The notes below the pieces were generated by a model. That model worked only from the letters and a program-made list of their open reading frames with translations, had not been told where the DNA came from and made no database searches. A stretch of DNA of 54,793 nucleotides, counting the filler, from Jimgerdemannia flammicorona (Eukaryota), in the NCBI GenBank assembly GCA_003990765.1. It is 2 parts of 2 records of this genome, joined end to end, with 100 filler letters (N's around TTAATTAATTAA, not from the genome) between each part and the next. Parts side by side here need not be neighbours in the genome. Positions count along the whole stretch, not along the records: positions 1 to 27,349 come from RBNJ01000636.1; 1 more part is not named here. One strand, 5' to 3'. Below are positions 11,746 to 49,052 of the stretch, piece after piece (position 1 is the stretch's first letter; every line of letters starts with the position of its first letter). A program made the position numbers and the translations under genes.

Positions 11746-11749
11746 GGTA

Positions 11750-11892
11750 ATGGTTAGTCATCATTACTCATCTTATAGCCTAGGTGAGTTATACTGTATA
11801 ATCTTCTTGCACTCCAATCTGGTGGCTTATAAGGAAAGGCTATCTCCTGTGATGATATCATTATTCTGAGGTCACCATTACATCTTTCTTCT
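11750..11892 (-). repeat. Partial 3' LTR of gypsy G1 with polypurine tract
   Basis: Minus strand AGAAGAAAGA (11883-11892) is followed by TGTAATGG starting at 11882; the far LTR end is not securely identified. Confidence 0.55.
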
Positions 11893-14800
11893 AAATAAGG
11901 ATCTTCTCTTGAACATTCTTATTCATTAGTCCAGTCTGAAAAATTTGCTGATCCGGCAGGGGGTTGAAAAGTGGTATTTATAGACTAGTATCTTTTTTAT
12001 ATATTTTGGCATAATGGTAAAGGACTACTCTCTTCATATAGAGCAAGGGTCTGATTTTGATCTTGACTAACCAATTGATAGTTCAAACTCCTCTGGCTTT
12101 GAAAGTCTCATAGATAAGTAGTTGCTGGTATCATATTTCTTAAAGAATGGTCTAGACAGATTGCTTGCTAGTCATGAGATATGTTGTTATAATTTGCAGA
12201 CTAGAATCTCATAGGTAGTTATCATATTTTACTTCTCTTGTATAGGTTTGTAGTACTTCTTGAGTTTGTTCCTGTATACTGTGATAGATAGTATGGTCTC
12301 TGAGAGTTTTCTAAGCCAGAAGGTAGTTCTCTTGATATCTTACATGTAGAAGAGTTCTTCTCATTTGGGCTCCAGTTTTTGTAACCATGAGGCTTCTACT
12401 ATATTTTAATATAGTAGAACCTTTTCTACAATTTGGATGGATTCTAGGGTCTTGTAATTCTTTTCTATATTCTTTCTTATCAGTACTTGTAACTTGATGA
12501 TGTAATCTTTAGCCTTCTTCCTGATTTGATGCAGTCTCTGGATTTCTGAGTCAATCTATCTCTAAGTTAGATCTAGATTTATGACTGAGATTCCATCAGA
12601 ATCTTCTTCTCCAAAGAGCAGTTCTCTTGGGATAAAGTGTATACTCTGTGACTATATATCTTATAGAACAGAGAGGACAGTTAGGAGGTAGTTATTCCAA
12701 TTGTCATATGTGTCTGAGATCTTTGCCAGAATATTTTTAAGAGTTTTGTTGGTTCTTTCTATCTGTCTATTTTCTTGAGGATAGTGTATAGTGGTCTTGA
12801 TATACTGAATCTTATATTTCTGATATATTATCTCATGGAAGCCATTGATAAATTCTGTGCCATGGTCTGTGGTAATTTGCCTTGGTGTCTTGTATCAGCA
12901 GATAATTTCTCAGTACAAGAAGTCAGCTATAGAGAGAACATTGGCTTCTTGTAATACTCCTACTTCTATCTATTTGATAAAGAGGTCTATGATAACTATA
13001 ATGTAGCAGTTTCCTAATAGTATTACTGGTAGCAGTCTAATGATATCTATTATGATGTGGTGGAAAGAGATAGGCTCAATTCTTGATGACTCAGATGCCT
13101 GGTCTTGCTGATCTTATTTCTGTTTTTGGTACTTGTCATACCCTTTGACAAATTGGTACAGGTCTTCTTCTATCTTGGGCCACCACATAGTTCTTCTTGT
13201 CTTGTTTTATATATTGGTTCCTCCTAGGTATTCTCGTTTATATACTTCTTTCATTACTTGATACTTCTTATATTTGGGTATTATAAGCTTTCCTCCTTTT
13301 TTGAGTATAGTGTTGTCTAGTTCAAATTATTTCCAAGTCTGGTTAATAATGAGAATAGTCCAGAGTTTGAGGTGGTTGGGTATCTTCTGCTGTCCAAGAT
13401 GACTGATTAATCCATAGTATAGCTCCTTATTCATGTTGAATAGTCTTGATGGGGTGTTTTGGAGTATCCTTGAGAGTATATCAGCATTGGCATTAGTTCT
13501 TCCTGAGCAGTGCTTGATAGTATAGTCATACTCTTACAGCCTGTAGATCTATCTGGTATATATTCCTTTAGGGTTCAGAGTGTGGAATAGCTTGGCAAGA
13601 GAAGAATAGTCTGTTTGAATAGTGAAGTGTTTTCTGACTAGATAGTAGTGGAACTTGTCTACTGCCCAAACTACTGCTAAGTATTCTAGCTTAGTTCTAT
13701 CTGCTCCCTGGGTACCTTGGCTTATATAGGAGATGATATATTTATGTTCATTTTTCTTCTGAGCTAGAACTGCTCTAAGTTCTATAATACTTACATCTGT
13801 TTGCAGGATGAACTCTAGGTTCCAATCTGGTCTTCTGAGGATGGATGCTTGGGTCAACCTAGTCTTGAGTTTATTAAAGGTTTCTTGACATTCTTTGGTC
13901 CATTCAAACTTGGTCTCCTTCTTCAGTAGCTCATAGATAGGTACTGTAATATTAGAGTAACCTTTGATAAATCTTCTATAGTAGGAGACCAGTCCAAGGA
14001 AGGCATGGACTTCTATAGTTGTTCTGGGTCTTGGGTAGGCTATAATAGTCTCAATCTTCATAAAGTCTGTGTGAATTCCTATCTAGTTGATGATGTGTTC
14101 TAGGTAGGTGATTTCTTGAGCTGTAAACTTACACTTCTTGGGCTTAATATAGAGACCATGCTCCTTGAGCTTCTTGAGAGCTAGCTGTATATAGTTGACA
14201 TATATCTGTACAGTATTGCTGAAGATGATCAAATTATCAATATAGATAAAAAGCTATTTTCCAATCTCATTGCTGAAGACTCTGTTCATTATTTACTAAA
14301 AACTTGCTAGGGTATTGCAAATTCCAAATGGTATTTGCAGGTAGACATAGGTGGTGTTAGGTATGATAAAGGCTGATTTCTCACTGGTATCTTGAGTGAG
14401 ACCCATCTGATGAAAGCCTGAGAACAGATTCAAGATAGTATAATATTTGGCTTCATTTCTAAGGGTGGTAAGGATTTCTTGAATATTTGGCAAGGGCTGC
14501 CTATCCTTCTTGGTGATTGCATTAAGCTTTCTGTAATCAATGCAGAGTTTTGGGGCAAACTCTCCAGGCTTGCTTTCTTTCTTTGAGACAAGGACAATGA
14601 GTGAAGCCCAGGAACTAATAGTTTACTTGATAATACCAGCTTCTTCTATTTCCTTAAGTTCTGCTTGCAGCAATTCTCTGTAGACAAGTAGTATGGGTCT
14701 GGCTTTCTGATAGATGGGCTTGGTATTATCAGTGTCAACTTCATGATAGTACTTGAGTTCTTGATTGTAGATGTCCCTGAAGTCTGTGGTGAGTACTCTT

Positions 14801-14929: not shown

Positions 14930-15330
14930 CCTCTTCCAGTAGATCCAAAGTCTTGTTCTTCTCTCTTGGTCTTGATGAATTTGATGGCTTTAGTGATCTT
15001 AGGCTTCTTGACTTCATAGATCAGCATCTGGCCAATTCTGTCATACTTCTTGACTTTGAATGGGGTGGTAGGATTGTGATTCCTAACTATGAGAAAGATT
15101 CTGTCAGTATAATCAGGGTCGATTACTTCTCCTTCAACTGAGATTTTACTTTTGGCCAGACTACTTCTGGACTTGATAATTCCAGCATAGTTCCCTAGCA
15201 ACCTGACTCCAATTTCAGTGCCAAGTAGAGTGATGGTCTGTGGTTTAAGGATAGCATCTTGAATGCTGGCAAGGTCCATTCCTATGGCTCCTTCAGTCTT
15301 ATATTCTGGTATCTTGGCTTCAGGATGAAA
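14930..15330 (-). pseudogene. dUTPase domain of G1, between protease and RT
   Basis: MDLAS, KSRSSLA, VIDPDYT, DRIGQML and REEQDFGSTG match dUTPase motifs 1-5. Confidence 0.92.
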
Positions 15331-16121: not shown

Positions 16122-16124
<3 letters not shown>

Positions 16125-16156
<32 letters not shown>

Positions 16157-17350: not shown

Positions 17351-18504
17351 TATATTGTGAGCTTTTATAATCTTGTACTCTTGGTTCTTGACAATAATTG
17401 CAAGTCCTACTCTTAACTACTGTCTAAAGGCAGAGACTTTGACTAGTTGTCCAAAAGTAGCATTGACCTTCTATTCCTTAAGGTCCTTGTAGATATCATA
17501 CTGATAGATCTTGGACTTGTACAGCTTCTGTTCTTTCTTACTTTCACTTTTTTCTGAGACTAGAGTAGTGTCTTCAATAATTTGGTAAGCAGCTTCATCT
17601 AACTCCATGTCTTGATCAATTTCCTTAGATTGGGTCTTACTTTGAATAGTGATAGCTGGGGTCTTCTTTGGTCTTCCAACTGGCTTGCTATTGCCCTTCT
17701 TATCATAGGGCTTGGAGCAGTTTCTAGTATCTTCAGTAATAGGATAGAATTTGGACTTCTTATAATATTCTTTATTATCAGTATCACTAATCTCCTCAAT
17801 GACTACTGCATTGATTTGTTCTCTAGTTCTGATAGTATTACTTAGTTGGGCTTTGCATCTTGTTTTAGTCATACAACTCTTTATATAGTGGTCTTCTTCT
17901 CTATATCTGAAGTATGTGATATTGCATTCTTCTATAGCAACTATAAATCTCTATACTAGTCTCCTGTTGGCACTTCAGACTCCTTTAATAACATTACTAA
18001 GATATGCAGTTATCTTGATAAACTGCTTAGCAAGTTCCTCCACTGGGTCAGCTTTGGCTACCTTAGAGATAGGTAGAGATAGTTGTCTGTTTACAACTAT
18101 AGTAGGTATGATACTAGTTAGCTTTTGTGGCTCCATCTTGATACCAGTTATTTTCTCCATTGAGTATTCAGCAGGGTGTTTGGCAGTCCAATATCTCTAT
18201 ACAAAGACCACTTTCTGATCAAGGATCAGAGCAGCTGGAGTAGACCAGATTGCTAGGGCAATTTTAGAGTAGAGTTCTTTGAGGTAGGGCTATTAAATAG
18301 TTCAAATCAGTTTGAATCAGTTCAGATCATCAGTTCATATATCAAATCAGTTCAACTGATTGATTCATTGCTATATGGCTCCAAAAATTATTTTATTAGC
18401 CTTGTAATTGATTTTACTAAGAATATAAGCAATTTGTAAAGTTGGAAGCTTGCAAAGTCTATCTTATAATCTGAGACTTAAGACAATCACATAATTATAT
18501 ATCC

Positions 18505-18917
18505 AAAAGAGAGGGGGGAGGAGGGTGCATTCTCACTACTCAAAAGGGGAGAGGGGTTCCAAATAGTGCCTTAACTAAGATATATATATATTCTTTTTAT
18601 CTAGCTTTTCAAAAGGAGAGGGTGGAGAGAGGTTTGAAATGGTGCCTTAACCAAGGTATATAATTATATACTTTTTCCTTTTATTCAGCTTCTCAAAGAG
18701 AGAGAGTATGTGCTTGCCTCATCTCACTGCTCATTCTAACTTTTCAAAAGGGGAAGGGTTCAAAATAGCACCTTAACTAAGGTATATAATTATATACTTT
18801 CTCTTTTTATCCAGCTTTTTGAAGGGGGAGAGGGTGTGTGCTTATCTTGTTTTGCTGCTCATTTCAGCTTTTTGAAAGGGAGAGGGTTCAAAACAGTGCC
18901 TTAACTAAGGTATATAT
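18505..18917. repeat. Minisatellite (~75-130-bp units), left part
   Basis: Four copies of the core GCCTTAACTAAGGTATAT...TTTTATCCAGCTTTT. Confidence 0.9.
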
Positions 18918-19385
18918 TGTAACATAGTGAATACTTACTCTTGAAAGTACATCAGATTTCTGTATCTTGAATACTTGATCTTCTCTGACTCCTTGGAGTC
19001 CTTGGGATGCAGGGGTGGATGAGTTCAAAGTGTATCTGCCCATGGGCTTACTAGTTCCTTTGCTATCTCTTTGCTTTTGAACTATTTCGATCAGAGGTTT
19101 ATTCACTCTAAGATACTGGGTTATTTATACAAGTTTTGCTAACTATAAGGTGGCTAAGTAATGGCTCATTTCACAAGTATTGAATCTTTTAACATCTGCT
19201 AAGATTTTGCTGATTGTGAAGATTTTAATATCTTCTAAATCTTTGCAAATGTTAAAGTTTCTGCACTTTGTGGAATATGGCTGCTATTTTTATGAGGCTA
19301 AGCTATATTGGGAATTGGATTCAGGTATTATGATCAAATGTCTAATTCCTCTGTTTCATGTTACTAATTTGGATCAGCTGTCACA
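18918..19385 (-). repeat. G2 3' LTR, polypurine tract at 19386-19395
   Basis: TGTAAC...TCACA termini; near-identical to 25167-25634; adjacent minus-strand AGGAGGAAGA. Confidence 0.95.
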
Positions 19386-19426
19386 TCTTCCTCCTGAATA
19401 GGTGATTTGTCTCAGGAGTATCCTAT

Positions 19427-19888
19427 TCACTCGAATTCCCAGGCTTCTACAATTTGTATTTCCTTATATTGTGCAATTTGGATCATTATGTCCTTCCAAT
19501 GTTGTCTTTTGATATATCCAAAGTCTCTTAGAGTTATTCCTCGGAAATGAGCTAAGGCTGACTTGTCATCTTTGAATAACTTATACACTCTTTTTGCAAT
19601 TGTGATCTGAGTATAGGAGAGCTGACATTCTCTGATCCAGTCTTCTTTTCTCATCTTTGGTCTTGAATTCAGTAGCTGTCCCAACTTGAAGTATTTCTAG
19701 AACTCAGTTCAGTTCTGGTAGGCCTTGAAATATGAGATTCATGACAAGTGTGTTTGCACTATACTCTGGATGCTATTGAAGGATTCTTCCATTATTGGTG
19801 GCTCAGTGGAACACCACTGTCTTTCAATGGCTTGCTGGGCCATGCTAGTAATTCTGAGGGCAGCAGTATTACTTTATTGACTGGTCAT
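19427..19888 (-). pseudogene. G2 ORF3: ~153-aa protein of unknown function downstream of integrase
   Basis: ATG at 19888 overlaps the integrase end; single frame with four internal stops; homologous to 47685-48188. Confidence 0.75.
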
Positions 19889-21070
19889 GATACTTCTTGA
19901 GTTGGTTTTGGTAGATGGTAGTGGGGATGATTGTGCCTGAGAGTTTTTGTAGCCAAAAGGTGGTTCCTTTTATATCTTGCACAAGGTAAGGTCATTTCTA
20001 CTTGGGCTCCAGTTTTCGTAACTATGAGGCTTCTACCATGTTCTGATATACCAGAACTTTGTCTCCTATCTTGATAATCTCCAGGGGTTTGTGGATTTTT
20101 TCTGCATTCTTCCATTGTAGTGCCTGTGCCTTCATTATGTAATTCTCAGCCTTCTTTCTGATTTAGTGTAGTCTCCATATTTCTCCATCCACATGTTTCC
20201 ATACAGTATTCTCATTGAACGATAGGGTTTCTTGAGAACTTTCTTCTCCAAACAGCATTTCTCAAGAGGTAAAGTGGGTACTTTGTGATCTGATATCTCA
20301 GAGAGCAGATAATGCTATTGACAGATAGTGATCCCAGTTTTTATAGTTATTGCAAATCTTGGCAATAACATTCTTGAGGGTCTTATTGGTCCTTTCTGCT
20401 TGTCTGTTTCCTTGAGAGTGATAGGCTGTAGTACGAATATGCTGGATCTTATACTTCTTGTAGAGAACCTCAAAGAACTGGTTCACAAATTCTGTTCTTC
20501 TATCTATAGTTACTTGCATTGGAGTCTTGAACTGGCAGATGATTTCTTTGTAGAAGAAATTGGCAATTGACTGTACATTGACTTCCTTGAGGGGTCCTGC
20601 TTCTATCCACTTCATAAAAAGGTCTACAATGACAATGATATATCAGTTGCCAGTCAGAGTCAAGGGTAGAGGGCTGATTACATCCATTGCTATGTGGGCA
20701 AATGGTACTGGTTCTATTGTATTGATCCTGGGGCTTGGTTTTATTGGTCTTGTTTCCATTTCTGGCATTTGTCACAGGTTTTGACAAATTGTCTGATATC
20801 TTTCTCTATTCCTGGCCACCATATCATTCTTCTTGTCTTGTTGTATGTATTCATTCCTCTTAGATGGCCAAGTTCATGTACTGATTTCATTGCTTGCTCC
20901 TTCTTGTGTTCTGGTATGACTAGTAGTTTTCCTTTCTTCAGTGTTTGTCCATCAGTTTCAAATTGTTTCTATGTTCTGTTGATAATCATTTGCATCCATT
21001 CTTCCGGATGTTGGGGCATCTTTCGCTATCCCAGATATGTGATGATTCCATAGTAGAGCTCCTTATTCAT
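19869..21070 (-). pseudogene. G2 integrase (HHCC finger, core, GPY/F module)
   Basis: MNKELYYG start; KWIEAGPL, TAYHSQGNRQAERTN and KLEPK-K-PYLV motifs. Confidence 0.9.
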
Positions 21071-22579
21071 AATTGATTTATTGGTTGGAGGTATTTTGAG
21101 GTGTCCATGATAGAGTATCTGCATTGGAATTTGTTCTTCCAGAGTGGTGTACAATGGTTACATCATAGGCTTATAACTTCATTATCCATCTGGTATAGAT
21201 TCCTTTGGGTTGTCCAGTTGACAGTAGCTAGATGAGAGCTGAGTGATCTGTCTGAATGGTGAAGAGTCTTCCAGTCAGGTAGTAGTGGAACTTTTCCACA
21301 GCCCAGATGACTGCAAGGCATTTCAACTTATAGGATTCATATTGTTTTTCAGCTCCTCAGGTTCCTTGGCTTAGGTATGCAATGATATACTCTTTTTTGT
21401 CTTCCTTTTGAGCTAGAACCACTCCTAGTCCTTGTGCACTTGCGTCTGTCTGAAGGATAAACTCTTGGGTCCAATTGGGTCATCTGAGGATGGGTGCCTG
21501 GGTCAGTCTGACCTTGAGTTCATCAAATGCTTTTTGTTGTCTGCCAGTCCAGTTGAATTTAGTGTCCTTCTTATTGAGTTCATAGATTGGATCTGCAATA
21601 TTGGAGAATCCTCTGATAAATCTGCGATAGTAGGAGGTAAGTCCCATGAAGGCTTGGGCTTCTGTAACAGTGGTGGGCCTTGGGTATGCTGCTACTACTT
21701 GTATCTTGAGGGGGTCTATGTGCATTCTATCTTGATTAATAATATGGCCAAGGTAGGAGATCTCGATTTCTGCAAATTTGCATTTCTTGGGCTTGATATA
21801 CAGGCCATACTTTCTCAGTCTTTCTATTATCTGCCATATGTGCTGCAGGTGTTCCTCAGGTGTCTTGCTGTAGATGATTATGTCATTGACATAGACCATC
21901 ATCCATCTTCTCAAGTCATAGTGGAAGATTTTGTTCATCATTCGCTGAAAGCTTACTGGTGCATTGCACATCCCAAATGGCATTCATAGGTAGATGTAGG
22001 TTCTGTCTGGGGTGATGAAGACTGACTTTTCACTTGCCATCTCTGTGAGTCTGATTTGGTGGAATCCTGAGTATAAGTCCAAGGTACTATTGTACTGTGC
22101 TTTATCTCCCAGTATTATAAGGATGTCACTGATAAGGGGCAGTGGTTGGCAATCCTTCTTGGTAACTGTATTGAGCTTTCTGTAGTCGACACAGAGTCTT
22201 GGGGTGAATTCCCCAGGTCTGCTTCCTTTTTTCGAGGCTAGTACAACTGGTGAAGACCAGGGGCTGCTGGCTTCTTTGATAATACTAGCTTCTTCCATCT
22301 GCTTGATTTCTTCTCTGAGCCATTCTCGGTAGGCTGGTGGGACAGGTCTTGCCTTCTGGTAAATTGGTTCGGTGTCTCTGATATCTACCTCATGATAGTA
22401 GTGTGGGGTCTTTCCCTTGATATCTTTGAAATCTATAGTGAGGATATCCTCGAATTCATGGAGTATTTTCTTGAGTTCCTCCTTGAGTGGAAATTCATTT
22501 CCAATGGTGTAACTGTGCTTGTTTGTGATTTCCTCCTTCTTATGCTCCAGTTTAGTAATCTTGGTACTAGTAAATACTC

Positions 22580-22965
22580 CTCTTCCTGTGGATCTGAATC
22601 CTTTCTTTCCTCTTTTTGTTTCCTCCAAATTCTTGACTTCTATGATCCTTGGTTGTAGGATTGGAAAGATCAACATCTGTGCCAATTGGTCCTTCTTCTT
22701 GACTGGGAATGGGATTGTAGGATTATGATTCCTAGCAATGAGCAGGATTTCTCCAGTATAGTCAGAATTGATGACTCCTTCTTCAATCATAATTTTGCTT
22801 CTGGCCAGGCTGCTTCTTGTCTTAAGGATCCTGATATGATCCTTTGGGATAGTTATCTCCAGTCCAGTTGCGAGTAGGGTGGTTGTTTGGGGTTCTAGTA
22901 CAGCTTCTTCTACTGTGGTGATGTCCATTCCAGCTGCATTTTCCGACTTGTATTCTGGCAAGACT
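22580..22965 (-). pseudogene. G2 dUTPase domain
   Basis: AAGMDI, RSSLA, GVINSDYTGEI, QLAQML and RGKKGFRSTG within ORF 21984-22961, in frame with the RT N-terminus. Confidence 0.93.
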
Positions 22966-25166
22966 GCATCAGAGTGGGTCCTTCAGATCTTGACCTTAAT
23001 TTCTTCTTCATCATCACTATCCTCCAGGAGGGCTGGTGGTTCATCATCTTCCTCCTTCTTCTCTTCTCTGACCTGTTTTTCGAGAGCTTTTTATCTTCTT
23101 TTCTGGTGGATTTTCTTGATTCTGATGGTGCACTGGTAGCAATCATTGACATACTCCATACAGTACATCTTGATCCCATAAGAACAGACTTCTTGTGGTA
23201 TATAGCCTTCTGTGATCTTCTTACACCATTCTTCTTTACTCATCTATCCAACTTTCTTCTTCAGAGTAGTCACCATATAAGCTTCCTCTTGCTCACTCTC
23301 TTCTTCCTCTATATCAGACAAGACTCCTTTGTTGACATTGATGGGAATTTATATCTTCTGTTCCTGGTAGGTGATTTGCATCTTCTGGGCATTGAGATCA
23401 ATTACTGCCCTGGCTTTGTAAAGCCATTGATTGCTGATAAGGATGTTATAGTTAGTGGTATTGGTTATGATTACATCTACTGGGATGGTTGCTCCTCCAA
23501 TCTTTATGGGGACTTCTCAGATCTTTCCCAGAGGGGTGGCTCTTGTGCTATCTGCTATAACAAAAACCAACTTAGTTGCTTCTTCAACTTCCCAGCCTAG
23601 ATGGTCTGCTGCTTTCTTGCTGAGGAGATATCCTCCTGCTCCAGTATCGATGATAGCTTCAAAGACTCTATCTTCGATTTGGCATGTTGCATAGGCAGAG
23701 GTTTTGCAATTGTCTTCACTTTCTCCTCCTGAGTCCTCTTGAACATTATTGGCCTCGGTTATCTTCCATCCTTGCTTCTTGGTTATTTTGGCAAGTCCAA
23801 ACCTCATTTGTTGTCTGAATGTTGGGATTTCTGTGAGCTGACCAAAGGTTACATTGACCTTTTGTTGGCTAAGGTCCTTGAAGATATCATACTTGAAAGT
23901 CTTAGTCTTGTAAAGTTTCTTTTTTTTTTCTCCTTCACTGGCTGGAGTAGTTTCTCAGATAATATCTTGAACTGCTTGCTCTAGCTCCATATCTTGGTCC
24001 ATCTCTTCAGCTTGGCTTTTGGTGGCCATTTCTATCTACTTTTCTACTGGGTTCTTCTTGGATCTTCCTGGTGATCTCTTGTAGAGTTCCTTGTGAACAT
24101 CCTTCTTGGTAGTCTGAGCAGAATAGGCCTCCCATTCTTCTTCATCAGAATCTCCAATTTCCTTGAAGATAATTGTATTGGCCTACTCCTTGTTTCATAT
24201 AGCATTGCTTGATTGAGCCTTGTGCTTGGTTTCACTCATGCATTCATAAGAATAGTGGCCCTCTTCTCTGCAGATGTAGCAGGTACCTTTCTTCTTGTCC
24301 AAGGTGGCAACAAACTTCTGAACTAGGTGGCAATTTCTTCCTTGGATTTCTTTTACCACATCTCTCAGGTCAGTAGTCATTTCAGTAAACCTCTTGGCAA
24401 GTTCCTCCATAGGGTCACTGTTCTTTTGCTGCTCTGTAGTTTTTGGCTGAGGTGTGTTTTAATTGATCATTGTAGTAGAGATCACACTTGTTGTCTTGAG
24501 TGTTTCGATTCTGACTCCTGTGACTCTTTCCATTGTATGGTCTTGTGGATATCTGTCTGTCCAATATTGCTGAGCATAATTGACCTTCTGTGGCAGATCC
24601 AAGACTACTGGTAATGAATGGATGGCCATGGCTATCTCTGGGTGAACTCCTTTCATGAAGGTTGCTTCAGCTACTTGATCTTGGATAGCAGTAGTATAAT
24701 CCATGAGGATTATCTGATATCGAATTCTGGTATAGAATGTGTTTGGATCCTCACTCATTCCTTGGCATGTTGTGTTGAGCTGATCCTTCAGGGCTTACTT
24801 GATCTCATCTGTATAATATGTATTTTGGAGCCAGGTCTTCTGTACTGTCAGTATAGCATCGGCATCATTTCCTACATGGGTTGCAGCTGTGAATGCTACT
24901 CTGGCAGGACCTCATAGGCTGAAGAGCATGAGGGCTACTTGCTGTACTACTGTCAGGGTCCTTACAGTTGTGTACTGCTCAAAATCATCAATGAAGGTAA
25001 TGATTGGTTTATCTGAGATATACCCATGGAATACTGGTGATCTCATATCCATTTTGTCTGAGTATTGTGGCTCAGTTTGTGTAGTTGCTCAGGTAGTGGC
25101 AGTTGTTTGTTGTTCAGCTTGAAAGTGAGAGATTCATCTTAAATCATCAGCCAATGGGCACCAAGT

Positions 25167-25634
25167 TGTAATGTAGTGAATACTTACTCTTGAAAGTATG
25201 TCAGATTTCTGTATCTTGAATACTTGATCTTCTCTGACTCCTCAGAGTCCTTGGAATGTAGGGGTGGATGAGTTCAAAGTATATCTGCCTGTGGGCTTAC
25301 TAGTTCCTTTGTTATCTCTTTGCTTTTGAACTATTTTGATCTGAGGTTTATTCACTCTAAGATACTGGGTTATTTATACAAGTTTTGCTAACTATAAGGT
25401 AGCTAAGTAATGGCTCATTTTGCAAGTTTTGAATCTTTTAACATCTGCTAAGATTTCACTGATTGTGAAGATTCTAACATCTCCTAAATCTTTGCAAACA
25501 TTAAATTTTCTACACTTTGTAGAATATGGCTGCTATTTTTATGAGGCTAAGCTATATTGGGAATCAGATTCAGGTACTGCGATCAAATGTCTAATTCCCC
25601 TGTTTCATGTTACTAATTTGGATCAGCCATTATA
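25167..25634 (-). repeat. G2 5' LTR with primer-binding site
   Basis: Copy of 18918-19385; minus-strand TGGTGCCCATTGG starts 3 nt inside the LTR boundary (25151-25163). Confidence 0.93.
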
Positions 25635-27449: not shown

Positions 27450-27518
<69 letters not shown>

Positions 27519-27521
<3 letters not shown>

Positions 27522-27709
27522 ATAGTAAATCTATAATTATCTAGATAGCAACCAGATAGCAACTATAATATATAAAATACCCCAGAGACTAGAGTGAATA
27601 AACCTCAGTCTGAATTGAAGTACAAATCAAAGAAGCCTCTAAAGATTGAGTATTGGTCTCCTTATCTCCACTCCAGTCTACTTTCTGATATAAAGAAGAG
27701 TCTGTTACA
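27519..27709 (+). repeat. G3 5' LTR (3' half only), followed by PBS-like TTTTTGGTTCA
   Basis: Matches 48461-48652, ends TTACA, and is preceded by a ~69-nt poly(A), probably the tail of an inserted LINE. Confidence 0.85.
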
Positions 27710-30700
27710 TTTTTGGTTCATTTGCCAGATAAGTCTGAAGATTTGCTGCCAAGTTTAAGGAAGAACTTTGCCACATTTTGAAAAGAAACCCACCACTTAA
27801 GGAATAAGCTACTAAATTTTGATTCACTTGCCAGATAAGCCTGAAGTCTGTCATTTTTAAGTTATTTACTATATTCTAGAGAGCCTGCCATTCTTGCCAC
27901 AAAGCCAGTCTATTGATGCAACTTCATAGTGACTTATCATGCAAATGAAGTCAGTCTTGATGTAATTTTGCCAAGAGAAGAGAATCTATATTATCTACCA
28001 CTTTCAAGTTATCTGCATTCTCAGAGAACTACTAATCTGGGAAGAATCCATAACATCCAAGTTATCTGAGTTATTTGAGTTATCTGTAACCTCCAAGTTA
28101 TTCATCCATTCCCAGTAAGAAGAATCTGTCACCAGGCTGATTTCCAATAAGCTAATTTAGATGAATCTGTACTATCCAGCATTCCCAGAAGAACTGCCAA
28201 GTTATTCCCAGTGAGCCCAATTTAGAAGAATCTACACTACCTTTATTCCTAGTAAACTACTATTTCAGGAGAACTCACATCCAAATCAAGTTATCTGCCA
28301 AATTGTGAAAATAGCATATATAAGGAATCTGCTTATACTATACAAAGATCATTATGTCAGAAATTGTATCCTTTTGGAGATTGCTGTTACTCAAGAAGGA
28401 AAACCACAAAATTGTCAGACCATTATGCATAAAGAATGCCTATACCATATATACAAAATTACTACTATACTCAGAGAATCTGTCTCAAAAAGGAAATTGA
28501 CACACAGATTACTCACAGATATTCAGCTTTAACTATTATACCACTAAATATCAAGAATATTTTATTACTTATAATAAAGTAACTAGGGGCTCAAGCCAAA
28601 CTATACCAACCCCCAATCTTGTAATTTACCTCTATTGAGCTGAGCATATTATATTTGAGGGCTTAACTGGAAATATTTCAAATCAATATAACTTTTCAGC
28701 TTACAAGAACCCACAGTTAAACTGGATACAATACTAATTTCTGCCACCACAGGAGAGCCAGTTATTACTAATATCCGGATAGGAAGAGAAGTAATTATCT
28801 CAAGACTTGCCAACTATCTAGTATCAGAAGGATCTCAATCAGAACTAGAAGTCAGTATAGCCCAAAATCTCCAACCAGATCAACCAGACAACATAGGCAG
28901 TCCTGTTGGATAATTTGAAGAACTTGTATAAGAACTAGAAGATCTCATTATATAAGTCTGGCACCCAGTAGCCAGATACTTCAGAGAAGTTCTACCAGTC
29001 TCACCTATTGAACCTTTACTACCAGCTCTCTTGCAGAATTGGAAGAAGCTCTCTCAAAAATATCTAGGCTCACTCCACTTCATCTAAGATCCAGAACACC
29101 ATCCTTAAAATACCCAAGTACCCCTATCTCCAGTGATAGTTCAGAAAGTAAATCAGAGTCAGAATATGAATCAGAGTCTAGACCAAAATCAGAGTCAGAA
29201 GGAAGTGATAACAAAATAACCACCTCATTACCAACCTTTGCAGGATATCTAGAGGAAGACCCTAGAGAATTCCTTAATTGAATTGAAGGAATTACAGCCC
29301 TGAGGAATCTCTCAGATGAAAGAAAAATCACTAGCTATAAGGCCCAGCTCAGAGAACCAGCCAGAGGAATTTTCCACCAAATAATAAATAACCAATACTC
29401 AGAACTAGTAGTACAAATATAAGTAGCAGCATCCTATAATCTGGAATACATAGCCATGATCCACTGGCTCATTGAAAAATATGCAGGAAATGAAACCCAC
29501 TATAAGGATCAAGAATCCATTATGGGGATGAAGATAAATCTTGAAGAATCACTCAGAGCCTTCTTTATAAGAATCCAGAAAAGAATACATATAGCTGGAT
29601 TCAATACCACCAACCAAGACATCATAGGTCCAATGACTTTCATAAATGGGATTCCTCCAAACATTGCCCAGCATATCTGTACTCTAGATATCAGAAGGTC
29701 TGAAGAGCAAGTAGATGCAGCCCAAGGATTCTTTGATATCAGACAAGGAATTATCTGGAGTGACCATGATAAGAAGGATGATAAAGAAGACATCCTAGTC
29801 AAAGCCCTATAAGGACTCCTTCAGAATAAGAGAGATCTGAAGAAAGAAGACCAGTTAAAGAAGGAAAGAAGAACAGGAGTGAAATCCAAGACCTCAGTTC
29901 CCAGTTGGACTGATTAGTTGAATAGATTGAAAAACTCACCACATGTAAAAATTGAAGTTATCAATACAACAGAGGATATCCACCTCAGAGGAGCCAAGGT
30001 TATCCATCAAGAGATAACAAGAACTACCAGTAAGAGGAAAGAAGATACCCTGTCTGAGACAGAGCCCAAGTCCAATAATTCCACTATAGATAATTTGGAT
30101 ATTATACCACTGAATGTGATAACAAAAGAAGTGACTAAAGGGACTCAGAACCACAAAACCAAAGGAATGACACTCAGTACAAGAATACTGAAGCCCACTC
30201 TGTTGAAGATTTTGAAGAAGTAAGTAACAGTGAAGACTACAGTGATCTAGACTTATATGTTGCTAAGATTATCACTCAAAGAATAGTCTACCCAGTAGAG
30301 AAAAGGAAGAGACCTGTAGGAAGGCCATCCAGGAATATTAGTAGAAGAATTATTCAAGAAGAAGATGAAGAACATAAAGAAGAACAAGTAGAAACACCTC
30401 CCCAGACCCCCTCACCTTTTACTTCTGAGACATATAAGTTGCAATCAGAGGATGAAGAAATGGAGCAAAAAGAATGAGAACCTATAATCCTAAAGCCCAA
30501 AAAGAAGGGCACCCCAAAGACTATGCCTAGAGACATCTACAATGAAGCCTGGCAGAAGATTCAGGATGTTAAGATAGAAGTCCCTCTCCTGTAGTTTCTG
30601 CAACTAATACTAGCTAGAGTCTAGAACAAATTACTGAGGACCACTAGGTCTAGCACTGGCCAGGTCCTCATTCCACAGTAAGAGCTAGCTCCCATACCTA

Positions 30701-34520: not shown

Positions 34521-34532
34521 ACATTTATATCC

Positions 34533-38168: not shown

Positions 38169-38711
38169 AGAGCCCTTCCTTGTATTAGGATTTAATAGTC
38201 AAGGGTTGGGTTCATTGTTGTTCTAAGGTAATTGATGGGATACATGGATAGTATAACTCTATAGACTAGTGGAATAAAGGAGTCCAAGTGACTATAAAAA
38301 AAAAAAGCCACTCTAAGGAACTTATATTCAACTGATCTCAAGGTCTGGACTTGCCAGACAAGAAATAACCATAGAAGGAGAATCCATTGACCCAGGATAT
38401 ACAGGTGAAATTAAGATCATTCTGTATAACAGTAGTACAGAATGGTACCAAATCATAAGAGGATAGATGATTACCCAAGCAGTCTTTATAAAAGTCAAGA
38501 TCCTACAATTATAGAAAGTTTTCAAACTGACTGAAGGAACAAGGCAAGCTGAAGGATTTGAAAGCTTAGACAAGAAGGAAGTATATCTCCTTTAGGTCAA
38601 TTATCTTAAAAGAAATATTCTCCAGCAAGTATACCACCAACCAGTCAAACTGCATAAGAATCTCATCCTGGAGCCTGGAGAGCAAACTACCTTCAAAATC
38701 TTTGCACCACC

Positions 38712-42600: not shown

Positions 42601-45440
42601 CTTACTGGTGAGATATTGGTAAAGTGGCTGGGAAGGAGCAGAAGGACAAGGAAAGAAGGGTGGAGAAGGGGCTGAGATAGCAATTGGAGCTAATAGAAGG
42701 GGGAAATGTGTCTGGAAAGATGCACCACCAGTTGGCAGTGGAGGTGGCAGAGTTGCAGGCAGAATTGAGGGCAGTTGAGGATAGGGCAGTAGATGGCCTG
42801 CTTGCCAGACTACAGGTGAGGCAGTTGGAGGAAGGAGAGAGGCCAACTAAATACCTGTCAGATATTCTGAAGACCAGAAGGGTGTGATACAGCTGACCCT
42901 CAGTATTGTATAAAGATGGAGTGGAGGTCTCAGAGATTGCCAATATGTTGGGAGAGGTCTCAGAACAATGGCAGACTCTCTGGTAGGATAGAGGGGAGTA
43001 TGCTGAGGATATGGTACTTTGGGAGGATGATGACAATATAGTGAACAATTGGCCAGTGATGGTGGTATCTGAGATAGGGGAGGCAGTGATGGGTGAAGTG
43101 TCTTTGGATGAAGTTTCAGAAGTATTATAGAAGATACAGACAGATTCATCATCTGGGGAGGATGGGCTGCTCTGGGAATTCTGGAAGGAGTTCCAAGCAG
43201 AGTTTGGCAGCTGGTTGGTAGAGATGGCCAACTTTGTTCTGAAGGAGAGCAGCTGGATTAGCAATGGCTTCTTGGGATTAGTTTCCCTCCTATATAAGGA
43301 AAAAGGTGATCAGCAGGTGTGGGTGGAATTGGTGACCCATTATGTTATAAATGTAGATAGAAAGCTGGTCTCAAATATTCTAGCAGGAAGGATGCAGCAG
43401 TATATTGGCATACTGATGAGTGAAGAGCAGTGAGGCTTTATTAAGAGAAGACAGATCAGAGATAGTATAGCTTGGGTGCAGAATGTCTTAGAAGGCTGTA
43501 GGAGCTGGCAAGTAGATGATAGGATGGTCTTCCTGGATCAAGAGAAGGGCTATGACAGAGTGTGGTAGATTTACTTAGAGACTGTTCTGAGGAGGGTTGA
43601 ATTTGGCATAGCAGAAGCAGGGCAATTGATGGGCTTAGTATGGAGATGCAGAGTAGCAGTTATGATGAATGGATAGAGTGACCTGGAGTTTGCTTTGGGG
43701 CACAGTGTGCTACAGGGGGACCCTCTCTCTCCCCTTCTTTATATACTCTCTCTGGAGCCATTGCTGGCATGACTGAAGGGGTAGCTTTCTGAACTATGGA
43801 TGAGTGATGTGGTCTGGAAGTTAGATATCTTTGCAGATGACATAGTAGTTAGATTGGGTAGTATGGAGAATGTGGATCTCTTGCAGGAAGGGGTTAGACA
43901 GTATGTATGAGAGACTGGCAGGGGCAAAGCTGAATTGGAGCAAGTGTGAGACAATGGAACTTGGTGCCAGTCTGGGAAAACATGGATAATTTGGACAATT
44001 GGTGGCCACTGGGAGTACTGTTTGGTATCTAGGTATTTGGTTCTTAGTATATAGGACTATCCTGCCAAAGGAGTGGTAGAGTGGTATGATTCAGAAGTTG
44101 GAAGGCACTTTGACTGGTTGGTCTGGGAGAAGTTTCTCCTTAATAGACAGAATTGTGGTCTTGAATGTATATTGGCTACCAAAATTGTGGTATCTAGAGT
44201 ATCACTTAGATTTTCTGGGATGGGTAGTGCAGCAGCTGAAGAAGATTGTAGAAGGCTGGTTATGGTATTAAAAGTGGCTACAGGTTGGGTAGGATACATT
44301 GGTGATGCAGATGATGGATAGCAGCCTGGGGTTAGTGGACTTCAGGTGACAGCTAAAGGTACTTAGGGGTTGGTGGGGGTGCTGATTGGCTGAACTAGGT
44401 GAGGGGGACTGGGGCAGACTAGTGATGGACAATTGGGAGGTTCAGTTCTGCCCCCATGATAAGGTTTGGAAGGATATGCAGAGTTTGCTTCAGATTCAAA
44501 ATGGCAGTTAATTGTGGTATAAAGGGTTCTAGTGGGGCATAGTAGAGGCCTGACTGGCCATGAGATTAACAGGGTCAGAGATGGAGGTTGGTGAGAATCC
44601 TGAGCAGAGATGGTGACAATTGGGGGACCTCCATATTGGTGATCATAGTCTGAAGGAGTACTCACTGATTGAGGTGATGGAGTGGATCTGGCCTGCCCTT
44701 CTGGAGAGATGGCCAGCAGGTTGGCAGAAGACAGAATTGGGTAAAGGCTGGGAGTGGAGCTGAATCTAGAGTTGGGGAGCCTCCTTGCTCAAGGTGGTAC
44801 CCCCCAAATACTGAGTTATATGGTGGCACTTCTTGAGAAGAAATATGATATTGGGGTATCAGACAGGATGGATGGAGGTAGATGGCTGTTGGGACTGTAA
44901 GGTAGATAGTGGGGTGGTTCAGTCACCAGAGCATGTTCTGGCAGCCTGCCCTGGTGTTGAAGGGTTCTGGCAGTGTTTGAAAGATTACTGGAGCCCTGCA
45001 GATAGAAGGACAGGAGATCTCATCAGTCTGGTGGTCAAGTGCTGACTAGTGGGGGAGATAGGAGATATCTGGGATAGCCTAGATTGGGTCCTGAGAGTCT
45101 GGGTTCTGATGGCAGTACATTGGTGATGGGTGTTTGAGCAGGACCCATGGTTGGGGATTGGTGAGCTAGTAGAGCAGTGGAAGTGGCTTCTTTGGGAGGT
45201 GATACAAGGATAGTAGTATCAGGGGAGGTGGCTTCTACCAGGGGCCTTGAGGAAGGTGCAGAACATTATATGGCAGAGTTGAGGACATCTGCTGTTAGAT
45301 AAGTATAGGGTTAGATAGAAGAAAGGAGTTGGATGACCAACCCTACCTATATATGATATGTTATAGTAGTGGTTTGTGGTTAATTATCATTATAATAGTG
45401 TAATAAAGTTAAAGTCCTAGTAACTATAAAAAAAAAAAAA
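39652..45440 (+). mobile_element. Full-length LINE B2 (ORF1 39832-41700, ORF2 41713-45336, degenerate)
   Basis: TSD AAAAAAGAACACATT(A/C)AAGA at 39632-39651 and 45435-45454; poly(A) tail; collinear with B1; FADD at ~43830. Confidence 0.96.
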
Positions 45441-45454
45441 GAACACATTCAAGA

Positions 45455-47700
45455 ACTCTTGGACAATAGAGTCATCCACCCCTCAACCAGCCCTTGGGCT
45501 AGCCCTATACTTATTGTACCAAAGAAAAGAGGATAGAGACTCTGCATAGATTACAGAAAACTCAATTTAGTTACTGAAAATAATATCTATCCTTTGCCCA
45601 GAATCAATGACCTCTTGGACCAGTTACAAGATACCAGACATTTCAACAGTATGGATATTTTTACAGGATTCTATGATATCTCTATAGACCTAAAAGATAT
45701 TCAAAAGACAGCTTTTCTTGTCTTAGAAAAACTGTTTAAGTACCTCTGAATACCCTTTGGACTTTGCAATATACCCCCCACCTTTTAGAGGATGATGAAT
45801 TCGATCTATGCCCCTCTGATCCACTACTGTCTAATTGTATATATGGATGATTCCAACATCTATTCAGTAAATTTTGAGAAACACCTATACTATCTAGAAG
45901 AATTCTTCAAACTCACCCATAAGAACCACCTGAGACTCAATATTAAGAAATGCTATTTTGGACAACAGAAACTTGAATTTCTTAGATTCATAGTTTTAAA
46001 AGAAGGAACTCTTACAGATCCAAAGAAAACCAAAAAGATCAACAATTGGTCAGTACCCAAGACTCTAAAGGAAACAATATCATTTCAGATACTAATATTC
46101 TACTATAGAAGATTTATCAAGAATTTTACCCAAATTGCTACTTAATCTGAGTCCTTCTCAAGAAAGGAGTACCTTATAAATGGATAGAATCACAAGAGAA
46201 AGCTTTCAAAGAACTCAAGAACTATATGACCACAGTACCAATCCTTATGTACCCCAATCTACAGAAGCTATTTATCTTATATATAAATACTCTAAAGATG
46301 GTCTAGGAGCAGTTCTAGCCCAAGAAGGATCTGACCAACAATACTATGTAATAGCTTATACAAGCTGAGCTATCAATCAGCAACAGATGAACTATGATAG
46401 TATCAAACTAGAATACTGGACAGTCATCCTGTTCAAGCATTATCTTATTAAAAAAAAGTTCACCCTGATTACAGACCATATAGCTCTCAAATAGCTATTC
46501 AACTATAAGGAACCTACTGGAATCCTAGCCTGCTAGATCCTTATCCTTCGGAATTACAAAATCACCATTATCCACAAAGTAGAGAAAGCTCACAACAATG
46601 TTATTGTACTTTCCTACCAGCTTCAATGAACTAGAAGAAGAGTATTCTGAGGAACTACACTCTAAAAGAAGCTCCTCAGACCATCAAGGTACAAGAAGAT
46701 CTCATTTGAAAAGAACATCAGAAAGCTCACCAAGGATAGGTGAACATAGAAGAAAAGTTGTGAACAATATACCAACACTGGCCCAACCTTAGAACTCAAG
46801 TCTGGGATATACTTAAGAAATATAATACTTGCCAGAAGTACCAAGGAAGGAAGAACCATCAAGCACTACTACAACCAATCATACTATTGAACAACATTCT
46901 TCAGAGATAGAGAGTAGATGTAATTAGACTCCTATCAATTATACCAAGAAGAAACAAGTATATTCTTATATTTGTAGAACATCTAACTAAGTGGTCTGAG
47001 GCTTTCCTAATGGAAATTATAGATGCCTTAACTATTGTAGGCCTTCTCTATAGACTCACACTCAGATATAGACCTCCAGAAGAACTCATCTCTGATCAAG
47101 ATACAGAATTCATCAATAACATAATCACAAGTTATATCTAATTCACAAGATCTACCTCAAATAGACCACATCACATCACCCCCAGACCAATGGTATGACA
47201 GAAAGAATGAACTAGACCATTAAGAAAGAACTTATCCAAGTCAATTCTATCAACTGGGACCTCTGCTTACCTGAGATCCTATGGGAAATTTGGAACATCC
47301 CTACTGCCTCTGCTAAACAAAAGTCATTTGAAATGATATTTACTAAGAAAACCAGAACTACTGACTATGAGAATTTTGGAGACCTCCTCAAGAAGACAGA
47401 ACAGTTAAATAATCAGGCTTAAGTGCAGATTACTAAAGCCTAAGAAAGACAAAAGAAGTACTATGACCAGAAATAGAAGGATCAGAAAATCAAGATTAGA
47501 GATCAAGTACTAGTCTAGAGAAGCATAATTGAGATAAATTTTGCCACTAAACTGGAGCCTAAGTGAAAAGGACCTTATCTTGTATATAATATCAGAGAAA
47601 CCAGTATTTATTTAAGAAGTATTAATAGACAAACCCTCAGGACACTAGTATACATCAACTGCCTTAAGATATATCTCTCTTACTATGAACTAAAGAATTG
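45455..47700 (+). pseudogene. G3 RT, RNase H and integrase
   Basis: YPLPRINDLL, PFGLCN, IVYMDDS, YYRRFIKNF, GLGAVLAQ, LITDH, ELISDQ and KLEPK-KGPY motifs. Confidence 0.92.
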
Positions 47701-48188
47701 ACAACTACCTCTAGACCCTTGTCCTCAGTTCTCTCCAATCTCTACCAGTTTCCCTATCACAGTTTCAAGAGCCCAATAGAACATATCTCCAAAGAATCCA
47801 GGTCCATCAAGAAAACCTCACTCTGATTGAGAGACTACTTCAGATCCACCAGCTGCAGACCTACTATGTAATTAGAGAACAATTACAGAATCTTCTCCTA
47901 TCAGACCTGGCCTATGTCTGTAATACCACTGGCCTGAACAGCAGGAATATCACTGCTGCAGAAAGATTATATACAATCTACAAATGAAACTCTTCAGCTC
48001 TAATCTAGACCTAGTTCTCTCTGAATGATCTCTAAAGAATGACTCTACTCACCTATTTCAGCATTATTCACCAAGTTGAGATCCTATTTCCCAAGAAAGA
48101 AGAAGAGTCTTTAGAATGGAGTGACCATAGTACAGACAATGAAGATGATGGAATAGGTATAGATGCAGAAGCTACTTATGCTTATTGA
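47685..48188 (+). pseudogene. G3 ORF3: ~167-aa protein of unknown function downstream of integrase
   Basis: Single frame from ATG 47685 to TGA 48188 with six stops of the CAA/CAG/CGA-decay type; homologous to G2 ORF3. Confidence 0.75.
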
Positions 48189-48239: not shown

Positions 48240-48652
48240 TGTGATGAGCAAATAGTATAACATAGTCAGATAATGTAAACTCCCAACATAGCATAGTTAC
48301 TCATGCACATCATACTTATAATTAATCAGGATACTGAATCAGGGTTATTTATCTGTATCTTGAGAATACATCTATATCTGGCAGACACACTCATATCCTA
48401 CAGATATACTTATATTCTGCAGACATATTCATATCCTAAAGATACACTCAAATATTACCAGAGATAGTAAATCTATAATTATCTAGATAGCAACCAGATA
48501 GCAACCATAATGTATAAAATACTCCAGAGATAAGAGTGAATAAAACCTCAGTCCAAATTAAAGTACAAATCAAAGAAGCCTCTAAAGATTGAGCATTAGT
48601 CTCCTTATTCCCACTCTGGTCCACTTTCTGATATAAAGAAAAGTCTATTACA
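48240..48652 (+). repeat. G3 3' LTR (~413 bp), apparently shared as the 5' LTR of a tandem copy
   Basis: TGTGA...TTACA after a polypurine tract; followed by the PBS and 5' leader (48653-49034) matching 27710-28092. Confidence 0.82.
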
Positions 48653-49052
48653 TTTTTGGTTCACTTGTCAGATAAGTCTGAAGATTTGCCACTAAGTTTG
48701 AGGAAGAACTTTACCACCTTTTGAAGAGAAACCTACCACTTAAGAAATAAGCTACTACATTTTGGTTTGCTTGTCAGATAAGCCTGAAGTTCACTGTTTT
48801 CAAGTTATTTACTACATTCCAGAGAGCCCACCATTCTTGCCACAAAGCCAGTTTGTTAATGCAACTTCATAGTCATTAATTATACAAATGAAGCCAGTCT
48901 TGACATAACTTTGCCAAGAGAAGAGAATCCACATCATTTACCACTTTCAAGTTATCCATATTCTCAGAGAACTGTCAATCTAGGAAGAATCTACAACATC
49001 TGAGTTATCTGAGTTATTCAAGTTATCTGCAATCTTAGTGACAGATTGGTGA

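Follow-up and report, generated by a model that had tools for sequence, protein, structure and literature searches.

The question raised by this locus is whether two short frames, each situated between the integrase gene and the 3' long terminal repeat (LTR) of a decayed Ty3/gypsy retrotransposon, represent a gene, and of what kind. The window, i.e., the whole stretch of DNA that was analysed, comprises 54,793 nucleotides (nt) of Jimgerdemannia flammicorona (NCBI GenBank assembly GCA_003990765.1), assembled here from parts of two records (positions 1 to 27,349 from RBNJ01000636.1) that are separated by 100 filler letters. It contains three elements, termed G1, G2 and G3; the frames in question are those of G2 and G3, and are called ORF3 (for third open reading frame, ORF) below. 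On balance, ORF3 is probably a third gene in its own right, belonging to a small clade of Ty3/gypsy elements with a dUTPase, and this judgement includes its more tentative interpretation as a non-enzymatic dimeric adaptor or regulator. ORF3 is read by us as a lineage-restricted accessory gene that is neither an envelope gene (env) nor a chromodomain. The two frames were located as follows (HMM, hidden Markov model; A1 and A4, alignments of G2-type and G3-type proteins as explained below).

19427..19888, minus strand: ORF3 pseudogene of G2, 153 codons plus stop with 4 internal stops; 243 bits with the A1 HMM
19869..19888, minus strand: overlap of the G2 ORF3 start with the integrase end, 20 nt, integrase stop at 19871-19869; from three-frame translation
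47685..48188, plus strand: ORF3 pseudogene of G3, 167 codons plus stop with 6 internal stops; 223 bits with the A4 HMM

In G2, the frame opens with ATG at 19888-19886 and is closed by TGA at 19429-19427, 31 nt before a run of purines (19395-19386) directly adjoining the 3' LTR. In G3, the ATG is located at 47685, 17 nt of the frame overlap the integrase frame up to its stop at 47699-47701, and the end is found about 40 nt ahead of a purine-rich run, with the LTR start near 48241. Both frames are in +1 relative to integrase. The coordinates, strands and peptides quoted in the first-pass annotation proved correct by translation, as did its statements that the ATG overlaps the integrase C-terminus in the +1 frame and that both frames end just before the polypurine tract. 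Its description of a conserved ORF was borne out with respect to conservation; what had not been spelt out is that both frames are closed, by stops at codons 5, 50, 60 and 64 in G2 and at codons 3, 10, 101, 108, 110 and 117 in G3.

All ten internal stops are found at positions where intact relatives carry Q, R or W, as expected from C-to-T-type transitions. The ratio of observed to expected CpG is 0.09 in the window and 0.02-0.10 in the elements G1, G2 and G3, as compared to 0.44 in L001, a near-intact relative of G2. The ORF3 copies of the window are pseudogenes, and we ascribe their inactivation to transitions of the C-to-T type in a genome with strong CpG depletion. The decay of the elements looks driven by methyl-CpG deamination and not by classical repeat-induced point mutation of the CpA type. 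The TpA/ApT index of the window was below or near 1.

Intact relatives were searched for in protein and metagenome collections. Using the broken ORF3 of G2 as query, a phmmer search against 1.84 billion representative proteins resulted in three matches of 130, 107 and 49 amino acids (aa). Among 14 word-indexed candidates, 11 were G2-type proteins with 61-83% identity to the 153-aa protein P0007. Three of 41 candidates (P0015-P0017) were of the G3 type and showed 59-60% identity to the G3 frame, two of them being full-length (171 and 172 aa). By searching with the merged alignment, nine further proteins were obtained, all of the G3 type. Within each type, intact relatives share 59-85% identity, and the intact product comprises 153 aa in the G2 type and 169-172 aa in the G3 type. 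Protein P0025 was excluded from alignment A4, since its second half diverges as though frameshifted. All relatives originate from metagenome assemblies, mostly from short contigs. Relatives in soil metagenomes, together with the literature on dUTPase-gypsy elements, suggest a fungal host. Scanning of JGI metagenomes yielded 148 pattern matches and one confirmed locus, L001; in the IMG/VR viral contigs, 98 and 286 pattern matches for the two types were obtained, none of which was confirmed as a relative. A look-up of sequencing runs listed no RNA run and one soil-metagenome DNA run (word share 0.11).

The JGI contig L001 (6479 nt) is a near-complete element of the G2 type with a gag-pol frame of 1281 codons. 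Its defects are an integrase split in two by one shift and one stop, and a stop early in gag. Its ORF3, open over 153 codons and in +1 relative to integrase, has a 44-nt overlap with the integrase end including the stop, and is 72% identical to the product of the broken G2 frame. The stop in gag is an in-frame TGA at 771-773, which separates the 46 initial gag codons from the frame of 1281 codons in a contig with an intact ORF3; a true defect, read-through at this site, or a mosaic assembly could each account for it. The contig opens with the end of another ORF3 (..EAWEFE stop), followed by a polypurine tract, an LTR and the element proper (1-80 and 6240-6300), and therefore contains either two tandem elements sharing an LTR or an assembly wrap-around. 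At the start of the 3' LTR (6388-6479), a 19-nt unit occurs in tandem in four or more copies; it is not present at that place in the G2 LTR.

Selection on ORF3 was analysed with a custom Nei-Gojobori script applied to one DNA pair of the G2 type, G2 and L001. Across 149 codons, the proportion of nonsynonymous differences (pN) was 0.147 and that of synonymous differences (pS) was 0.75, which is saturated, resulting in a pN/pS of 0.20. Differences were distributed over the three codon positions as 36/17/72. Removal of the 15 codons overlapping integrase left the result unchanged (pN 0.142, pS 0.767), and the same DNA read in the two other frames gave a pN/pS of 0.83 and 1.6. Seven segments covering gag, protease, dUTPase-reverse transcriptase, reverse transcriptase and integrase of the same two elements showed pN values of 0.11-0.23 and pN/pS ratios of 0.16-0.33. 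ORF3 of the G2 type is thus constrained as strongly as gag and pol, and the estimate is conservative, because G2 has decayed neutrally since its death. ORF3 is very likely a real gene under selection.

Comparison of the two ORF3 types was performed at the level of single sequences, of profiles, and of the whole window. BLASTP of the two window frames aligned 23 aa with an E value of 0.001; P0007 matched P0015 with an E value of 0.15, and P0021 with 2e-4 across 53 aa. In the joint alignment, identity between the types is 13-22%. Alignment of A1 (G2 type) with A2, the first G3-type alignment, by hhalign scored 29.0, as compared to 12.6 +/- 2.4 (maximum 21.1) for column shuffles, and none of 150 shuffles reached this score. 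With A4 (11 G3-type sequences), an E value of 2e-4 was obtained across 52 columns. With an HMM built from G3-type sequences only, 7 of the 12 sequences of the G2 type outscored all 2,400 shuffled decoys (top scores, 21.6 vs 10.7 bits). In a six-frame scan of the window, the same HMM recovered the ORF3 of G3 itself and that of G2, the latter in the correct frame, and the next match had an E value of 3.7. The segment recovered in G2 was:

19490..19789, minus strand: core of G2 ORF3 matched by the G3-only HMM, E 7.8e-5, 17.6 bits, HMM positions 29-121

In MAFFT alignments, both types are colinear over most of their length, starting near residue 35 and continuing until the helical domain ends, and the aligned cores are located at near-equal offsets (62-115 vs 56-109). 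The two ORF3 types, which occupy the same slot in the same frame and orientation, are on balance very probably remote homologues.

The elements carrying the two frames were delimited by LTR comparison, Pfam domains, and tblastn with the L001 proteins (PR, protease; RT, reverse transcriptase; RH, RNase H; IN, integrase; LINE, long interspersed nuclear element).

18917..19385, minus strand: 3' LTR of G2, 92.6% identity to 25166-25627
19386..19395, minus strand: polypurine tract of G2, immediately 5' of the LTR start TGTGACAG; read from sequence
19848..24911, minus strand: gag-PR-dUTPase-RT-RH-IN of G2, degenerate; from Pfam domains and tblastn with L001 proteins
25166..25634, minus strand: 5' LTR of G2, paired with 18917-19385
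27518..28092, plus strand: aligning part of the 5' LTR of G3, 87% match to 48460-49035
30715-31134, plus strand: protease pieces of G3, element interrupted by LINE-like insertions
38260..38700, plus strand: dUTPase domain of G3, PF00692 with E 5.7e-11 and 42.7 bits (cut-off 22), also found by tblastn
45438..46614, plus strand: RT-RNase H of G3, RVT_1 with E 3.2e-21, 39% identity to L001 pol
47132..47701, plus strand: C-terminal part of the G3 integrase, stop at 47699-47701
near 48228-48240, plus strand: purine-rich run before the 3' LTR of G3; read from sequence
48241..49035, plus strand: 3' LTR of G3, start approximate and placed by analogy with the TGTGA start of G2 and L001

Both elements have the LTR pair and pol domains of the Ty3/gypsy group, and in G2 the polypurine tract was read as well; its motif recurs beside the LTR in L001. 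The LTR pair of G2 is 92.6% identical across 462 nt, and in the 469-nt LTR alignment 35 of the 38 differences are transitions. The internal region of G2 contains, in this order, zf-CCHC, aspartyl protease, dUTPase (E 5.5e-24), RVT_1 and rve, and tblastn with the L001 proteins gave 66-75% aa identity for gag-pol and 72% for ORF3. The integrase part of G3 matched rve_3 with an E value of 1.8e-4, which is under the Pfam cut-off, and the L001 integrase by tblastn (33% identity, E 6.7e-20); the RT identity to L001 is 39%. A dUTPase (PF00692) between protease and RT is present in both elements, with the E values given above, and tblastn also aligned the region in L001 and G1. The architecture PR-dUTPase-RT-RH-IN-ORF3 of G2 and G3 is identical.

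A LINE-like element occurs in three copies (32511-38090, 39663-45420 and 49053-54779), the outer ones being 81% and 70% identical to the middle copy. Two of these are nested within G3, which therefore extends from about 27.5 to 49.0 kb and has its dUTPase cut off from the remaining pol; the third begins 18 nt past the 3' LTR of G3. Just upstream of the aligned 5' LTR of G3, two runs of 44 N each are present as assembly gaps (27350-27393 and 27406-27449). G2 is flanked by a tandem repeat of about 126-128 bp with units that are 63-80% alike (18524-18932 and 25754-26385), which suggests insertion into a satellite-like array.

The third element, G1 (minus strand, about 11183-18286), is also a dUTPase-gypsy element; a 5' LTR copy was not found in the window. 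In pol from protease to integrase it is 55-61% identical to L001 (gag, 46%; tblastn), and is thus nearer to G2 and L001 than G3 is (33-39%).

11882..12254, minus strand: spacer of G1 from the integrase end to the polypurine tract and LTR, about 375 nt, with no recognisable ORF3

The three frames of this spacer scored at most 0.5 bits against the A1, A3 and A4 HMMs; decoys were run for A1 and A3, and the best of 1,500 shuffled sequences reached 8.4 and 8.1 bits, respectively. No match of G1 to the L001 ORF3 was obtained by tblastn, and no ATG is present in G1 at the site equivalent to the ORF3 start. Strings noticed by eye in the spacer (FKA, AKIYK) were considered as a decayed ORF3, and this was rejected on the HMM scores.

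The protein encoded by ORF3 was characterised by domain, profile and structure searches. No Pfam family above its cut-off was found for seven ORF3 sequences; weak rows under the cut-off (LST1, E 0.062; Peptidase_C21, E 0.2) were taken as chance. Sequence and profile searches of the PDB gave no match with an E value below 0.04, and the rows between 0.04 and 1.7 (asparaginase, NPRL3, tissue factor, a dynein regulatory subunit, designed proteins) were likewise taken as chance. Models of ORF3 monomers calculated with AlphaFold2 (AF2) are all-helical and of low confidence. A fold search with the low-confidence G2-type model returned noise only (Foldseek best E 0.93; VIA best Z 4.8). For P0015, a model from the ESM Atlas has a predicted local distance difference test score (pLDDT) of 0.76; its structural neighbours have a template modelling (TM) score of at most 0.37 and are mostly dimeric histidine-kinase helices. 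These and the feature neighbours of P0015 (scores up to 0.93) come from unrelated bacterial or viral clusters and were treated as noise.

Among eight ORF3 sequences, the top 19-aa Kyte-Doolittle window ranged from 0.19 to 1.36, so that no membrane-like segment is present, and no basic cluster was found; the isoelectric point is 4.5-6.8. The absence of basic patches from all eight sequences argues against an RNA binder of the Rev type. A loose leucine-rich pattern is present in the N-terminus of the G3 type and absent from the intact G2-type proteins P0007 and P0012, with one match in the broken G2 copy P0001. The tail of the G3 type consists of about 40 residues with a net charge of about -16 to -20, contains conserved W and Y, and ends with AYxYW(D/N)DD; the G2 type ends with VEAWEFE. 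An acidic C-terminal peptide with aromatic residues is thus predicted for both types, on a product predicted to be a soluble, all-helical protein of 153-172 aa.

Dimerisation was modelled with two copies of residues 1-136 of P0015. The model passed its controls, with a score of 0.60 as compared to 0.19 for the best of three. In calibration with microbial structures, the mark was reached by 21 of 30 solved one-chain pairs and by none of 23 solved single chains; with eukaryotic structures it was reached by 17 of 29 pairs (1 of the 7 pairs without an older solved relative) and by none of 30 single chains. The runs agreed in at least 92% of the contacts, with a partner pLDDT of at least 75. In the model, the two chains meet in a symmetric, antiparallel interface, in which residue 52 faces 52 and residue 41 faces 60; it covers residues 30-84, which overlap the segment best conserved between the ORF3 types. 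ORF3 is therefore predicted to form a symmetric antiparallel homodimer via a long central helix, a binding mode that is supported by the model and not shown.

A possible role for such a protein can be outlined as follows. The helical core would hold the nucleic acid of the element or a Gag/integrase complex, while recruitment of a host factor would fall to the acidic tail; in this, ORF3 would resemble retroviral regulatory proteins or CERV of Cer1. For a small, soluble and probably dimeric helical protein, selection in two families together with absence from a third agrees with an accessory role as adaptor or regulator, and less well with an envelope, a chromodomain or an enzyme of core replication. 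The specific assignment as an adaptor or regulator of the element life cycle is tentative and is held with less than even confidence. Going further, ORF3 might be the first retrovirus-style regulatory protein described for a fungal-type gypsy element, namely a helical factor, active as a dimer and produced from a message of its own or through re-initiation, which binds element RNA, DNA or the preintegration complex, recruits a host machine (transcription, export or chromatin) with an acidic, tryptophan-capped tail, and has co-evolved with the pol dUTPase in a 'complex retrotransposon' lifestyle; this we regard as a doubtful, though conceivable, extension.

Several points weigh against the interpretation of ORF3 as a third gene with such a function. 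Both copies in the window are dead, and the frames found in databases are open by ascertainment, so that their openness is no independent evidence. The estimate of selection stems from a single pair with saturated synonymous sites and a pseudogene as one member. With respect to homology, hhalign probabilities were 30-47%, and in the reverse test a G2-type HMM scored G3-type proteins at 12.7 bits, as compared to 12.1 bits for decoys. ORF3 is not universal in the clade, being unrecognisable in G1, which is nearer to G2 and L001 in pol. Neither a Pfam family nor a PDB sequence relative points to a function, as judged from sequence comparison. The AF2 monomers reached a pLDDT of 51 and 44 only, and the dimer model was built without an alignment and for the G3 type only. 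Finally, direct binding of RNA or DNA is not favoured by the neutral to acidic character of the protein and its lack of a basic cluster.

The proposal of the first-pass annotation that a functional accessory gene is present is upheld by purifying selection similar to that of gag and pol and by the remote homology between the families. The roles it gave as examples (targeting, anti-silencing or nucleic-acid binding) are conjectural, and no known DNA- or RNA-binding family was found. That the products are small and helical and have no transmembrane segment agrees with the AF2 and ESM Atlas models and with the hydropathy values, and the exclusion of env and of a chromodomain with the lack of Pfam matches above cut-off in seven sequences and with a +1 frame that is not fused to integrase. 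Of the three refuting conditions it had named, the pN/pS of G2 and L001 spoke against neutral evolution, and the comparison with characterised domains retrieved no Pfam or PDB family, the fold search remaining at noise level with a poor model. The G2/G3 alignment was weak for the pair of sequences and stronger for profiles.

One alternative to an accessory adaptor is that ORF3 is a transactivator of the LTR, with a dimeric helical DNA-binding core and an acidic aromatic activation tail, similar to Tas of foamy viruses. It would agree with the predicted dimer, and with residues 61-113 of P0007 when these are read as helix-loop-helix-turn-helix, a helix-turn-helix (HTH)-like interpretation that rests on predicted helix lengths only. 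The W and Y residues in the acidic tail are also in its favour, since such tails resemble acidic activation domains. Pfam and PDB profile searches revealed no HTH family (no PDB profile match to an HTH protein up to E 10) and no other DNA-binding family, however, and no basic patch is present in the sequence. Moreover, the predicted dimer interface would take up part of the supposed HTH (residues 70-84), and the tail of the G2 type has just seven residues. This explanation is considered unlikely.

Alternatively, ORF3 could counteract host defence (RNA silencing, DNA methylation or heterochromatin), or tether the preintegration complex to chromatin by its acidic tail. Treatment by the host has evidently been harsh, as seen from the CpG depletion of the window elements relative to L001, and a gene with which the sister family G1 can dispense is more in line with an arms-race accessory than with a gene for core replication. 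In several chaperones, histones are bound by acidic stretches that carry aromatic anchors. On the other hand, Pfam and PDB searches revealed no similarity to a known suppressor or chromatin reader, and purifying selection matches that of pol, with no rapid evolution of the arms-race type within the G2 type. A defence or tethering function thus appears rather improbable.

How ORF3 would be expressed is of importance for both the accessory-gene interpretation and a further alternative. The ATG is located within the last conserved integrase codons (..KKYH, ..KRYH and ..SYY) in G2, L001 and G3, in each case in the +1 frame and 17-44 nt upstream of the integrase stop, and carries A at position -3. 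In L001 the gag-pol frame starts nearly 5 kb upstream of it, so that the ATG cannot be reached by cap scanning on genomic RNA. As ORF3 cannot be read as part of Gag-Pol without a change of frame, we infer that it is made separately. A subgenomic, possibly spliced, RNA would be one route; re-initiation after termination of Pol would be another, and is an option because of the short distance between the ORF3 start and the Pol stop. Inspection by eye of the sequence upstream of the ORF3 start in G2, L001 and G3 revealed no re-initiation motif of the UGGGA type. A string YYCTCAG|G is present 44-48 nt upstream of the ATG (G2, 19934-19941, minus strand; G3, 47634-47641, plus strand; L001, 5741-5748), and is a possible candidate for the splice acceptor of a subgenomic RNA. 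In G3 it is in another codon phase and in non-homologous alignment columns.

The same overlap could serve a programmed +1 frameshift, by which ORF3 would become a C-terminal extension of integrase, and IN-ORF3 a targeting or tethering module of the chromodomain kind. This would explain why ORF3 is always in +1 of integrase and overlaps its end, and +1 frameshifting serves gag-pol expression in Ty1 and Ty3. In addition, the ORF3 frame is open for 19-41 codons upstream of the usual methionine in three G3-type proteins, and P0022 carries isoleucine in place of this methionine. In L001, by contrast, the ORF3 frame is interrupted by a stop located 13 codons before the methionine, and gag and pol form one continuous frame, i.e., this element has no frameshifting habit. 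The methionine is found at the same site in all eight G2-type proteins that include the N-terminus as well as in L001 and G2, and in 9 of 10 such G3-type sequences of A4 (the exception being P0022) as well as in the G3 copy. No long fused form was present among the 1.84 billion proteins searched with phmmer (three matches, 49-130 aa), although gene callers would miss frameshift fusions. The conserved methionine and the upstream stop in L001 favour a separate protein, and fusion to integrase is very unlikely.

It is also distinctly improbable that the ORF3s of G2 and G3 are unrelated, each gene having arisen or been captured on its own in the slot they share, with similarity due to chance or to convergence of helical proteins. 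The low identity between the types, the BLASTP result for P0007 and P0015, the hhalign probabilities and the reverse HMM test at decoy level would all be compatible with this, and shuffles of columns or residues are lenient null models for helical proteins. Nevertheless, the G3-only HMM picked the ORF3 of G2 from about 110,000 six-frame residues with the next match 15 bits lower, 7 of 12 G2-type sequences exceeded all 2,400 decoys, the aligned segments lie at near-equal offsets, and start site, frame, length and carrier architecture are held in common. A decayed envelope gene or its remnant, finally, is already contradicted and virtually impossible, since intact copies comprise 153-172 aa and not the several hundred residues of an envelope protein with signal peptide and membrane anchor, no hydrophobic segment is present (top Kyte-Doolittle window 1.36), no env family was matched in Pfam, and purifying selection acts at the present length.

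The accessory gene proposed here is of wider interest because extra genes are common in LTR retrotransposons and few have a known function, while envelope genes and CERV of Cer1 have changed the view of such elements. Since the gene is common to two gypsy families with an RT identity of about 39% and missing from a sister family, what it adds to an element can be studied by natural comparison. The family can now be searched with profiles, and if hosts that carry active copies come to light, the mode of expression (splicing or re-initiation) and the interaction partners will become directly testable. The effect on annotation is small but real: such ORFs should be labelled as retrotransposon genes and not as orphan host genes.

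Among known systems, the retroviral proteins Rev, Tas/Bel1 and Vpr are small, helical, oligomerising and non-enzymatic, and are encoded 3' of pol in overlapping frames. ORF3 differs from these by the lack of an arginine-rich or basic cluster and of any sequence or fold match, and by a host that is, as far as can be judged, no animal. The chromodomain of chromoviruses is likewise situated at the C-terminal end of integrase in Ty3/gypsy elements, and a targeting role is conceivable for ORF3 too; it is, however, fused in frame to integrase and matches Pfam Chromo, whereas ORF3 starts at an ATG of its own in the +1 frame, is predicted to be all-helical, and gave no Chromo match up to E 10 in seven sequences. 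As an ORF additional to gag and pol in the env position, ORF3 belongs to the additional ORFs (aORFs), a class defined by position; aORFs of plant LTR retrotransposons were reportedly treated by Vicient and Casacuberta in 2020.

A close parallel is CERV of the Caenorhabditis elegans Ty3/gypsy element Cer1, which includes a non-envelope ORF likewise in the env position. According to PMC10309623, CERV has no homologues outside a narrow host group, is made apart from Gag-Pol, contains a predicted dimerisation motif, and has a regulatory function, being required for export of the genomic RNA. With 517 aa and a spliced mRNA of five exons, which has exons in common with the polyprotein (same source), it is much larger than ORF3, which has 153-172 aa and its own ATG; the two were compared by description only. 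Within fungal gypsy elements, the Boty-like elements of Botrytis cinerea carry the extra gene brtn, described without an assigned function in PMC8365987; brtn is antisense there, whereas ORF3 has sense orientation and overlaps the end of integrase. Gypsy elements with a dUTPase are described from fungi in PMC2864245, where the legend of Fig. 3 also names an 'add. ORF' without assigned function in some fungal elements; one of these could belong to the ORF3 family. ORF3s of bdelloid rotifers are further additional ORFs of LTR retrotransposons (PMC5408684), and in Entomophthora dUTPase domains are enriched alongside retroelement domains, as given in bioRxiv 10.1101/2023.09.13.557621. In the full-text literature searched, supplements lying outside the search, no description of the ORF3 protein family was found. 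Compared to other additional ORFs of LTR retrotransposons, ORF3 is a distinct family that matches no described domain, and for which selection and homology across families have been measured. An extra ORF in the env slot as such is known; new are the ORF3 family itself, the measured selection, its sharing by two distant dUTPase-gypsy families, and the predicted dimer.

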